Source of the DNA: Gekko japonicus
Taxonomy: Eukaryota
Length of the DNA: 64,000 nt
Reading direction: 5' to 3'
Assembly: GCF_001447785.1 (NCBI RefSeq)
Contig: NW_015172015.1
Coordinates: 309,418-373,417 of the forward strand
A program made the translations under genes and the position numbers. The notes below the pieces were generated by a model. That model did not search any database. It saw only the letters and a list, made by a program, of their open reading frames with translations, and was not told where the DNA came from. This document shows positions 25,686 through 32,766 of this stretch, piece by piece. Numbering within the stretch: position 1 is the first letter of the stretch; each line of letters opens with the position of its first letter.

Positions 25686-25759
25686 GTGACTGGACAAACT
25701 GCTCTAGAGAAGACAACTCTGAAGTCACTTGGTCTGACGGGGGGCAGTGCTATCATCAG
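25686..25759 (+). CDS. ASPSCR1: ASPSCR1 exon: VTGQTALEKTTLKSLGLTGGSAIIR
   Basis: tgcag acceptor, GT donor, phase 0 to 2; matches human TTLQSLGLTGGSATIR. Confidence 0.93.
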
Positions 25760-27711
25760 GTTGGCGGAAATCACAGCTTTTCCCTATGAATGAACTCTTT
25801 TTTCCTCTGTTTTTCACATGGGATAGGTAGTTTTGTTTCACTTTTGAGAAGTGGGGGGGAAAGCATATAAGGAAATGTCCAAATATCAACATTTCTAGTG
25901 CTTAGTGATTATTTGTTGTTTATCTGAAGCTACTTCTTGTATGCACTTACTTCAGGCACTGGCTCTGACCCCTCAATGCTGCTGGAAGGAATTTGTGCAC
26001 AAAACCTGCCATTACATTGTCTTCATTTCTAGCAGCATAGACAGCTGTGTTTTGCACTAATTCTTGCTGTGCTGATCCTTGTATACATTAGGACAGTGGT
26101 TTTGAGACTGCGGGTTGGGACCCAGAACTGGATCATAACTCTTTGGCAGCTGGGTCATAAGGTCAGGAGGGAGGAATAATGGGATATGCTGGAGGAGGAG
26201 GCCCTTTGAGGCTTGATAAGTAATTTTGGTTTGCCTCTGCATAGTGTATGTGACACAGCCTGTTGTTCAGTAATGCTATATGTCTATAAATACTAAATAT
26301 GTAAATGTGTTCAGTGTTAACTGCTGTGAGAATCCTGCATTTTGTATTGGGGAGGGGGGAGGTAGTGTGGAGTTATATTGGAAGTGAGTCCCAACAAATA
26401 TAGTCATCCAGCCATCTGTGAATGTTTGTGGAGTGAGACCTCCCCCCCCTCCCCGTAGTTTCTTGCGCTTCCTGAAATGTTGCTGTTGGGAGGCAGCAGA
26501 CGCGCTCAGAAACAGCATGGGAAGCAAAGCAACTACTTGCGGGGGGGGGGGGAATGGTCTACAGAAGTTGCCACAATTTTCCCACAAATATGCCATTTTG
26601 TTGGAGGCACCGTTGAATATGTGTAAGCTTAAAAGTAGTTTACACTTCAAAAAGTTTGAGAACCACTGCATGAAGTGAATTCCTTTTACTAAATGCTGTT
26701 CTCCATACCTTGAGAATCAGCAGAATGCCTTAAATAAACTAAACAGATATTCATATTCTCTTCTTTACTGAGTGTGCTTGGTAAAGCTGTTGGGGCAGGG
26801 CATACTCTGTAGTGGCACACACTTTGTAGTGTTTTTCTCCTGACTCTTGTCCTTTCACTAACAGATATAAACCTTGTTTTTTTGTCATGCTGATGTGTGG
26901 TCCTTAATTTTTTGTTTTGTTTTGCTTGGAGCTGATTTTGTTTATTTTGACTTTTACTGACTTTTTAAAATCTTGGTTGTAGCTCTTAAGGTTATATCTT
27001 TCAACTGTTTATCAACATGGATGGCCTTTTATGATTTTTTTCTATTTTCTTTGTTGAAATTGCTTCAGAAGTCCTTTGATCATATAAGTACTTGGAATAA
27101 ATAAATACTTTCTCAAGCATGCTACTTAAATCCCTGACTAGATGTTTTAGCCTTTTTCTTTCACACACACTTTACTTCAGGATATCTCTCCTCACATGTT
27201 GTTGCTCTTTTTTTGTGATCCCTCTGAGAGTTGCTTCACATGTTACCTGAAAAGATTGGTTTCTGCTTTCTGAGTTTTTTAACCGTATGTTTTCTGTAAT
27301 GTCTGAAGGAAACAGAAATAGTTTCTTCCCTGTGTGTTTATGTGTATGTCTCCTGTTCATATAGTTGTACAGAAATGGTTTACACATTGGGGAATGATGG
27401 AAGACCTGTCTTTTCCTATGAAATAATCCTGGATTATGGCCTGAGAAAAACTACCTTCTATTAACAGATGCTTGCCCTGTTTTCATGGACCAAAAATTAG
27501 AGTCCTTAGGTCAAGACACCACTTTAGTTAATATAAAGGGTAGCACCTGTTTTTATTAATCAGTTGTGTGGAATACAACGTGCTCAGATTTGTTTGTAAC
27601 TCTTTGAAGGCATTATTTAATTTGTTTTCATTGAGCAGTTTGAGTTAGGGATGAAGTAAACATTTTCAGTGTCAGCAATGATTTCATTCTTCCTTGTATG
27701 TCTTTTTGTAG

Positions 27712-27818
27712 GGTAATCTCAAAGAAATCTACCCTCTGTGGCCATGCAGAAGCTAGGAATCATGGATCTCCCACTAAAGAGCTAATACCAAGGGCAGCTT
27801 CCAGGGAAGAACCAGAGG
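27712..27818 (+). CDS. ASPSCR1: ASPSCR1 exon (5' part of the large central exon): VISKKSTLCG...EEPE
   Basis: ttttgtag acceptor in phase 2; GTATGT donor at 27819 in phase 1 matches the next acceptor; weak protein similarity. Confidence 0.6.
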
Positions 27819-27984
27819 GTATGTCCCTGTTTTATACAAAAGTACATTCCCGACAAGCTTGGCCTGCGGTGATGAGACCTTCTCTGCCACCAGATGCATT
27901 GATAAGCAGGGCTGCAATAAAGGACAGCTCAGTCGAGCTTTTCTCCCTCAGAGCCTATACCTTCCTCATTTATTACTTTTATAG

Positions 27985-28145
27985 GCAGTGAACAGCATCT
28001 GGGCAGAAGTATTCCTGAACCTGTGACGCCTCCAGTGTCAGATGTGCCATTATCAAACCTAACAACGTTTCTGTCCAGTCCTGGTGGGCCCTCCAAGCCA
28101 AAGAAGTCAAAGAACAGCCAAGAAAAACTAAAGGTGCAAAAAAAG
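27985..28145 (+). CDS. ASPSCR1: ASPSCR1 exon (3' part of the large central exon): SEQHLG...SSPGGPSKPKKSK
   Basis: LSSPGGPSKPKKSK is identical to human TUG as I recall it; ttttatag acceptor; donor at 28146 (an in-phase alternative exists at 28134). Confidence 0.8.
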
Positions 28146-31100
28146 GTAGTGGTTTGACTTGCTTAGAGTATACCGGGTTGGAGCGATATTGCTATTTTTC
28201 TGTTGCTACTTCGTCTTCTCCAAATGGGCTCTTCTAACTACTTTGGCTCTGCAAGACTAGTGTCACTGCAAAACTTTCCCCAGCTAAGCCTTGCTTAGGC
28301 TGTCCTCCAGAAGTAGGAAATAGGGCTCTTCTGTCCCCCAAGGTAAACCTTGTCCTTGGTTCATCTGGCTTTGCTTCCCTCTCCATCTGACATCTAGTGG
28401 AATTTCTGAGGTCTTTGTTTCTGAGCTGAACAACGCATATAACTAAAGATTTTTTAAAAACATAAGCGTTTAGTAAAAGAAAGACATCTGGGAATTCTAG
28501 ACCAAGCTTATAGGGACAACAAGCACCAGTAGACATAGCTCCTTGGTTGTACCCAATATCTGTTCAGGAATGTAACAGTCCATTCTCCTGAAAAGCTCAT
28601 AGTAGAAATAGAAAATACTTTCCTAGTCAAATGATCCGTATTCATTTGTACTCAGAAATGGCTTGTCTTTTGTGGTCTCTGGAGTTTAATACCACCCAAC
28701 TATAACCCATTTTGAATGAACAAAACTTTTGTCACTGAACCAGGTGAAACAGTTCACTGTGGATACTGCTTGCCTGGTTCTATAGGAGAGGGGAGAGACC
28801 ACTTAATTCTGAAGGATATAGGTAAAGTGGTAGCTAATTGTCACTGATTTTATTCAGTTCTTATCCTAGATTGAGGCCCACCCTAGCTTTTTTTGCATAG
28901 TTTTGTTTATAGCTATGGAAACCTGTTGTTGCCTAGAGAAAAAGGTCCTTTCCCTGCCAAAATTATAGCTCACTTAAGAGATGCCCCTGGACTCTGCCTT
29001 CCCAGAGCTAGTGGAGAACAGTCTTGGGAACAGCTGCAGGTTCTGTTGGAGGTTTCCCTCCCTTATGTTAAACAGCATGTGACCTTGACTGCTGCTTTCA
29101 GGCTTTTTGATCTCGGGTGCCTTTGCCACTGATTGATTACATTGCACTCCCTCCTCCATTCTTTCCATTCCCTCTCCTTGCTCTCATCAGCAGCTCCAGG
29201 ATGGGGCTGGCCACATGGCATCTGCTTTTTGTCCCTTTTCAGTCCAGAGGAGGAAGAAAAAAAACCCAAAACAAAACAAATTATTTTTAAACATCAAAGG
29301 TCCATTTTTGCAAAAGAATCTTCCCATTAATGTTGTGCTTGTGTGTGGTTTTGGATTTGATGGAAGAGGCTGGATAAAATCTGTGCCAGCATCCGTCTAC
29401 TTCTAGGCTGGGGATGGTTTACAGACTAGTCATGTTTTGGCTTTGATGTCAAAACATTAATTATTAGAAGGTAGCTTTACTTCAAATTCCCCTAGAAATC
29501 AGAGAATTGTGCAGCAAGGAAGAAGCTCAGCCCCTTGCTGTAAAGTCACAGCATGCTGTACCTACAGTCATTTGACACAGTGATACTTAGGCATATAATA
29601 GGTAGCACTGAGTGGCATAGTTACAGTATGCCCCATGGAGAGCCTATAATCTGTTGGTGACAGATCTCTCAGAGGTTCATTTTAGGCATCAAAACTAAAG
29701 AGGATGGAAGATGACTACTAATTTCACATTTATCCTCTCCTCAAGTGTTTTTTGCGATGGATCACAGAATAAAAGAACCATGGTCACACCCTGCACGTGT
29801 TGCCTCTTAAGTGGTTCTTGTCCTCCTTCTCTGAAGGCTGTGATTGGATCATGGGACATCTGTCATGACTGGATGATACTGTAGTGAGAAATGCAGCTCT
29901 ATTAGCCCATTAGTTCCAGCTCCACATCCAAAGCTGATAGCTGACCTGGTAAATGACATACTATTGTGAGGCTGCTAGAAAGGCTTGGTATGTAAGAGGT
30001 CCTGTTCCTTTTGTCTCAGGTTTTTGGCAGCCATCCCTAGCCACACTAGAAGTTGCCAGTATCCTGCATTTGTTTAATATTCTGTAGAGAGGAATGTGTT
30101 GTATTGTTTTTGTCCTCAAGTCAATTACTTGTTTCTAGACATAGCCCTTCTGGGATATGCTTCAATTATTCACCAGTCAATGCTGTTGAGAGAAGAGCTG
30201 CAAGTTGACCGCTCTGAGTTTGGGAGTATTTCATATCAAACTAGTTGCACAACTGAATGGAAAAGACCGTAACATTCTGAAATCTATCTAGACTTCATTT
30301 TGTGCTCTCCATGGCAAGTGACATTGGAACATTGGAGAACTCAGTGCTTATTGTCTCTTTAGTGAAGATATAGTACATCAAAGCCAAGCCCAACTAAATA
30401 TGCAGTAGAATAGAATCTGAATTGAGAGTGCAGGAATATGGCACTTGCCTGTGGAGTTTGTATTTTACTATCTAATCATGTCCTCCATAATGAACATTTA
30501 CTTAATGTTTCTCTGTGTGTCCTCTTTGTCCCTCTGTGAGAGATTCAGCTGTAGAAGTAATGGTACTAGATGTTTTAGTTCATTGTTCTTAGAATAAAAT
30601 GCAGATGTGCTGGTAGGATATTAACTGATGGCTCAGTTCTAGATTCTTTCTTTCCATGCTCATATAGAACTCCAGAATATGGTGTGGGATTCATCTTTTC
30701 CTTCAGATTTTGCTTGAAGGGCTAGTGACATGGTGGAAAAGAGAACAACATGTTCTAAAAGGTGTGCAAGTGATCCCCATCATAGAAAACTTGGCCTAAT
30801 GGCTGGCTAATTTTATCAGAGTTGACTTCTATGACAGTTGAAAATAATTTGTCGGTACCACTAATACCTACTATACTACTCTGTTGGAGGATGACAACCA
30901 AGATTTTGTGATACAGGCAGCTCTCTTCTGGCAGTCTATTTGGAGGAGGAGCCCTAGGCTGTCAGTACAAGACACTCACCCACCCTGTTCTGCTGCTGGT
31001 GCCAGTCTCTAAACAGCCAGAGTTAGGCGACAGGAGTCTTTGGAAGAGGATAGATTGGCAGCTCACGGGTACTCCCTGTACTGTCTGCCCAGGGAAAGCT

Positions 31101-32626: not shown

Positions 32627-32766
32627 AGTTTGGAGCGAGAGGCTGTTGTGTGCCATCCAGATCTCCAGAAGCCATTGGATTCTGGCCTACAAGAGCTTCC
32701 TGATGAATTCTTTGAAGTAACAGTAGATGATGTGAGAAAACGCTTGGCCCAGCTTAGAAGTGAGAG
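32627..32766 (+). CDS. ASPSCR1: ASPSCR1 exon: SLEREAVVCHPDL...ELPDEFFEVTVDDVRKRLAQLRSER
   Basis: ctgcag acceptor, GTCAGT donor; strong match to TUG ELPDEFFELTVDDVRRRLAQL. Confidence 0.95.

Follow-up and report, generated by a model that had tools for sequence, protein, structure and literature searches.

ASPSCR1 in the Gekko japonicus window

The window, by which we mean the whole 64,000-nucleotide stretch of Gekko japonicus DNA that was analysed, carries the middle part of ASPSCR1 (TUG, ASPL, UBXD9) on its + strand, to which all features described here belong. Seven exons were mapped between 23753 and 37755, every one with AG/GT borders, and when these are joined with the segment 27819–27984 left out, the translation is free of stops and equals residues 126–354 of P0002, a protein named ASPSCR1/TUG of Gekko japonicus by its source. 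P0002 scored above cut-off for both PF11470 (TUG-UBL1) and PF00789 (UBX), its lariat region matched chains of PDB entries 5IFW, 5IFS and 7OAT, and UBL1 and UBX are intact in geckos. A search of the genome with a lizard orthologue gave ten matches, all collinear on the contig of the window, with no second ASPSCR1 copy seen in this assembly; with a single gene copy, the assembly offers no other ASPSCR1 that could make up for a change in this one. In total the gene extends over some 123 kb (G000:C12305:270593-393656); the window does not reach its first exons or its last, and about 34 kb separates the gene matches at 299085 and 333168.

The exon upstream of the region of interest (25686–25759, 74 nt) has AG/GT borders and is joined to 27712 by RNA in runs X21, X23 and X24. 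It retains Gly-Gly-Ser at the position of the TUG cleavage site, reported as Gly164-Ser165 (PMC9556833), and Gly-Gly-Asn occupies this position in Heteronotia, Eublepharis, Euleptes and most of the other squamates and turtles compared. A G>A difference at 25724, found in three of seven reads of run X24 only, is likely an allele.

Positions 27712–28145 comprise 434 nt, and read as one exon the frame entering from upstream ends at a TGA (27989–27991). Removal of the 166 nt from 27819 to 27984, which begin with GTATGT and end with TTTTATAG, leaves 107 + 161 = 268 nt joined without a stop. The original prediction, that a single 434-nt exon is out of phase with its neighbours and a 268-nt one in phase, is borne out by this stop and by the agreement of the joined exons with P0002. 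We refer to the two exonic parts as the 5′ remnant (27712–27818, 107 nt), which is translated in P0002 and covered by X23 RNA at a depth of about 60–73, and the 3′ remnant (27985–28145, 161 nt) of an ancestral large exon, the latter delimited by RNA depth and loose read ends. Loose ends behind 28145 read into the next exon (32627–32766), which encodes the helical-lariat region and matches PDB ASPL constructs. A second donor, GTGCAA, lies at 28134, 12 nt before the exon end (28134–28145), and its use would yield P0001, an isoform four residues shorter; Heteronotia has a matching isoform pair of 500 and 496 aa. No RNA reads using the donor at 28134 were found in the 601-nt and 5-kb stretches compared.

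The segment 27819–27984 is spliced from mRNA

Raw RNA reads joining 27818 directly to 27985, the junction on which the original prediction had proposed to be judged, numbered 7 in X21, 51 in X23 and 11 in X24, a total of 69 from three runs of one study of which 3–12% each was read. A contig of X18, presumed to be RNA and originating from a second study, carries the identical joint. Within the segment, depth in X23, the deepest run, was zero in all seven 21-nt bins between 27829 and 27975 and about 70 just upstream, in the same reads that gave the junction count. Coarse depth bins could be read as partial retention, and this reading was ruled out by the zero depth in the fine bins; in poly(A)-type RNA such a lack of retention may in part be due to degradation of the transcripts that keep the segment. 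The segment is thus excised as an intron, and its GT-AG borders and removal from mRNA are as expected of a spliceosomal intron of the U2 type.

The original prediction had also offered a 1-bp assembly error within one continuous exon as its own alternative. Raw DNA depth in X22 is about two-fold, too thin to list indels, and the question is answered by other data. RNA skips the segment and leaves zero depth inside it, and a DNA contig of a related species (organism B, X3) covers 27640–28240 without a break, differing by 20 substitutions and by no gap, so that a second genome has the same length here. Moreover, one base could not restore homology to the orthologues, for which at least two changes of frame are needed. 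These observations refute the alternative, to which practically no probability can be assigned.

Coding origin of the intron

At this junction the orthologues of lizards, snakes, turtles, birds and one rodent carry about 58 residues, ending in F-x-P-F-x-G-x-G-Q-x-L; the length is 58 residues, or 174 nt, in most species. The intron was compared with a 58-column profile of 21 outgroup proteins by frameshift-aware alignment and scored 72.3, in comparison to a mean of −32.4 (sd 7.4, maximum −4.2; z of about 14) for 150 dinucleotide shuffles, a maximum of −16.8 for 74 real intron pieces of ASPSCR1 and −44 for the reverse strand. The best path uses all three frames and accounts for the reduction from 174 to 166 nt by three apparent indels: an insertion of 2 nt in a run of A (27839–27840, although its place varies over 27821–27869 with the outgroup used), a deletion of about 8 nt at 27922 and a deletion of 2 nt at 27941. 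Between the first two lies a putative fossil coding block of 27 codons in a shifted frame (27841–27921), which as a block scores 42.8 when aligned with the outgroup profile. How many indels are needed varies with the frameshift penalty: three at −4 and −6, where the 27922 deletion is on the best path, and two at −8 and −10, where the 27941 deletion merges with that at 27922; pairwise paths against individual outgroups also differ in detail. In the three-indel reading the intron has a mean identity of 0.43 to 14 squamates, about that of the 5′ remnant (0.40) and close to the value between the squamates themselves (0.51).

Three snake-like Logan ORFs (P0206, P0220 and P0221), called on contigs, continue across the whole segment and on into the next intron. 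Their last residues are VAV or VAI, which resembles the read-through past the donor in the window and not the spliced continuation. These ORFs indirectly suggest an unbroken outgroup exon at the DNA level. Short database proteins translated across the border of the intron and the 3′ exon were sought, and no candidate turned up. Between the window and organism B, six of eight differences in the intron change a fossil residue, as would fit release from coding, and five of seven in the exons also change a residue, so that these proportions do not discriminate.

The intron is therefore homologous to coding sequence of the orthologues, its gain is the derived state, and the ancestral segment was a multiple of three in length. 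That former coding sequence became an intron here, as had been proposed, is supported jointly by the profile score, the RNA splice and the gecko-specific gap in the protein described below, and we consider it nearly certain irrespective of the order of events. An old intron also present in outgroups, or an insertion of foreign sequence, is extremely improbable: the intron itself aligns with residues that outgroups encode, and the snake-like ORFs run unbroken across the site. At the protein level, the comparison of squamates, turtles and birds named in the original prediction gave the same picture, with the outgroup proteins encoding the segment.

Distribution and age of the intron

The protein comparison comprised 258 sequences, many of them isoforms, made up of the best 120 of 232 matches, the best 120 of 582 matches and the members of 20 clusters; the set is without pygopodoids, phyllodactylids, dibamids, tuatara and crocodilians. 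Anchors on both sides of the site were placed in 243 of the 258, and the remaining 15 were one gecko protein (P0005), ten proteins that show the segment and four that do not cover the site. In all 11 anchored gecko proteins the linker has 65–68 residues, and alignment reveals the same gap in P0005. Among the anchored non-gecko proteins the linker has 112–187 residues in 229 of 232. The three short linkers outside geckos have other causes: that of P0086 is a pattern artefact with the segment present, and those of P0076 and P0102 come from owl gene models that lack the 5′ start of the exon and keep the SHP box. A 58-residue deletion or an isoform lacking the segment was found in none of the 232 anchored non-gecko proteins.

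The 12 gecko proteins come from seven species: Gekko japonicus, G. kuhli and members of Heteronotia, Paroedura, Euleptes, Sphaerodactylus and Eublepharis. These genera we take to represent Gekkonidae, Sphaerodactylidae and Eublepharidae. The intronisation likely predates the split of gekkonids and eublepharids and is likely common to most geckos, judging from the shared gap in these protein sequences. The gecko evidence consists of DNA for organisms A and B and of proteins for the other geckos, and this leaves some room for an intron confined to Gekko and its close kin, with genomic deletions or wrong gene models in the others, as five of the seven species are known here from proteins alone. 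Against this, the borders of the gap are identical in all 12 gecko proteins and are the borders of the intron in the window, making a Gekko-only origin very improbable. Eublepharidae form the sister group of the remaining gekkonoids, and the crown group of geckos is dated to about 104 Ma (bioRxiv 10.64898/2026.10.21.760521); on this basis the event is likely Cretaceous or older. The original prediction was thus right that the intronisation is real and missed its age and its sharing, as the same protein gap is found in seven gecko species.

Splice sites and decay of the SHP box

In the ancestral frame, each splice site interrupts a Gly codon behind its first base, and 58 codons (174 nt) separate the two. 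The donor GTATGT (27819–27824) lies on fossil Gly-Met-Ser codons, at a site where the outgroup residues vary (Gly, Asp, Ser, Ala, Asn; Asp-Met-Pro or similar in turtles). The acceptor region (27965–27984) consists of a candidate branch point CTCAT (27965–27969), a pyrimidine tract with 14 of 18 pyrimidines and the AG, and overlies fossil S-S-F-I-T-F-I codons; the tract likely derives from the Phe, Pro and Ser codons of the SHP box itself.

The downstream frame across the end of the intron reads PSSFITFI-GSEQHLG. Here the acceptor splits the SHP motif mid-way (27969–28001), as indicated by sequence and protein alignment, leaving the hydrophobic half in the last 16 bases of the intron and an exonic half that lacks the second glycine in geckos (GSEQHL, GSKQPL or GIEQHL). 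The motif has been given as h(x)1-2F/W(x)0-1GxGx2L in a passage of PMC5389986 and as FXGXGQRU in one of PMC8495200. Neither consensus is matched by any of the 11 anchored gecko proteins, and of the 232 non-gecko proteins 214 match the loose and 156 the strict form. The loss or decay of the SHP box that had been read from this stretch therefore stands. The SHP box of human and mouse ASPL/TUG/UBXD9, as treated in portions of PMC8495200, PMC5389986 and PMC10641518, is the same motif that is seen at this place in non-gecko orthologues and in none of the 11 anchored gecko proteins.

The loose consensus is also absent from 18 of the 232 non-gecko proteins. In Varanus, vipers, rhea and several birds (P0013, P0016, P0017, P0109, P0111, P0175 and others) point changes or small deletions have eroded it, with the segment kept. 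This suggests that the box is weakly constrained across the sauropsid sequences compared. Passages of PMC8495200 report that it is absent from the orthologues of fly, worm, yeast and Dictyostelium, that p97 binding does not require it and that residues 313–500 are enough for p97 disassembly. Residues 1–311 also pull down p97, in a passage of bioRxiv 10.1101/2023.09.29.560242 that leaves the share of the box unmapped. Loss of the box is likely of mild effect because it is called dispensable for p97 binding in published work, and the effect of losing all 58 residues on the protein is likewise likely mild to modest. In a predicted fold of a lizard orthologue the segment (residues 204–261) lies in low-confidence coil (175–338), a hint only, as the model is poor (pTM 0.28).

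The site does lie, as had been noted, within the part of ASPSCR1 retained in the ASPSCR1-TFE3 fusion, which keeps residues 1–311 according to the relevant passage of bioRxiv 10.1101/2023.09.29.560242, and the next exon matches the start of a solved ASPL construct; this adds nothing to the mechanism in geckos.

Order of splicing and frameshifts

The succession of events that we favour, and hold to be reasonably probable as a complete chain, has in-frame cryptic splicing first and the frameshifts later. Two latent in-frame splice sites within the exon would have come into use, and the first excisions would have cleanly removed 58 residues from the linker that connects the ubiquitin-like domains to the lariat-UBX module. 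Such a loss may have been tolerated with p97 binding resting on the lariat-UBX module, and the segment, freed from coding constraint, could then have taken its +2, −8 and −2 indels. After these, retention would have led to the stop at 27989 and likely to nonsense-mediated decay, making splicing obligatory. The two sites share the same ancestral codon phase and lie 174 nt apart, so that splicing would have been in frame from the start.

In the reverse order, a frameshift came first, decay removed the unspliced RNA, and rare cryptic splicing between same-phase sites brought the frame back and later became stronger, a route described as a model (Catania-Lynch) in a passage of PMC2586383. This is also how the original prediction had seen the intron, as the rescue of a single frameshift. 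Retention does stop at 27989 now, the intron borders enclose all the putative indels, and no surviving in-frame variant is apparent in the outgroups, an isoform lacking the segment being absent from the 232 non-gecko proteins. Same-phase borders fit both orders, as rescue needs them too. However, rescue was not needed, the ancestral segment being a multiple of three with matched phases, and it would demand that a near-null allele of a single-copy gene persisted until splicing improved. With two to three indels present, at least one to two would in any case postdate splicing even under rescue. A rescued frameshift is thus possible but rather unlikely. The single frameshift of the original proposal is not borne out in number, the intron having two or three indels, and in-frame splicing over 174 nt could have preceded all of them.

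A more specific form of the splicing-first reading is that the SHP box spliced itself out. In the ancestor of squamates its Ser, Phe, Pro and Val codons would already have supplied the branch point, the pyrimidine tract and the AG, with a latent donor 58 codons upstream, and an exitron-like cut would have been fixed in geckos about 100 million years ago. We put this forward tentatively. If it is true, one could predict that new vertebrate introns arise from Phe/Pro-rich binding motifs within long exons.

Comparison with known intronisations

Intronisation is a known mechanism, and gecko ASPSCR1 is a new and unusually legible vertebrate example of it. In a human screen of 19,120 genes (Hoh and Salzberg 2025, PMC12124190), the part of the report consulted gives 342 intron gains, of which three were intronisations, with similarity in one. 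Those three genes, CYP21A2, RPGR and HELZ2, resemble the gecko case in that they are ordinary multi-exon vertebrate genes in which sequence that is exonic in the orthologues has turned into an intron, and the lost residues are predicted coil, as far as described there (PMC12124190). The same account (PMC12124190) has similarity detectable in CYP21A2 only, whereas the gecko intron is readable throughout. Unlike the human trio, the gecko case is also reptilian, removes a named binding motif and is common to gecko families. In human retrogenes (Kang et al. 2012, PMC3565874) cryptic sites likewise lay in coding sequence, and in the portion of that study concerned with reading frame, introns whose length is not divisible by three nevertheless, combined with indels close by, take a whole number of codons out of the ancestral frame (eight of ten without frameshift). 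Those retrogenes are described as young retrocopies with an intact parent (same portion of PMC3565874), whereas gecko ASPSCR1 is the only copy found.

Exitrons, in the definition taken from part of Marquez et al. 2015 (PMC4484396), are still able to code for protein and undergo alternative retention; the gecko segment is frameshifted and has zero retention in X23. As its retained form stops at 27989 and depth inside it is zero, the segment falls outside that definition, and by analogy it looks like the end state of an exitron-like event. Rodent MsrB1 (PMC2901347) offers another clade-specific intron derived from exonic sequence in a vertebrate gene; in the passages describing it, the sequence is mostly 3′ UTR, both forms are still made and there is no internal protein deletion, unlike in geckos.

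The spliced gecko protein is already in public gene models. A search of the open-access literature, with supplements (including the 342-gain table of PMC12124190) outside its scope, found no earlier paper on the origin of this intron among the papers listed, and that origin seems to have been so far unremarked. Proven vertebrate intron gains with a readable source are scarce, and here one conserved single-copy gene still shows the source of the intron, its two splice sites and the later indels. As many gecko genomes exist, the question of splicing first or frame break first is addressable at one locus, and if the SHP box did splice itself out, the steps of intron birth would be legible across gecko families and geckos would carry a natural SHP-less TUG. 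In either order of events the gecko gene provides a naturally occurring deletion of the SHP box of TUG, a motif over whose part in p97 binding there is disagreement.
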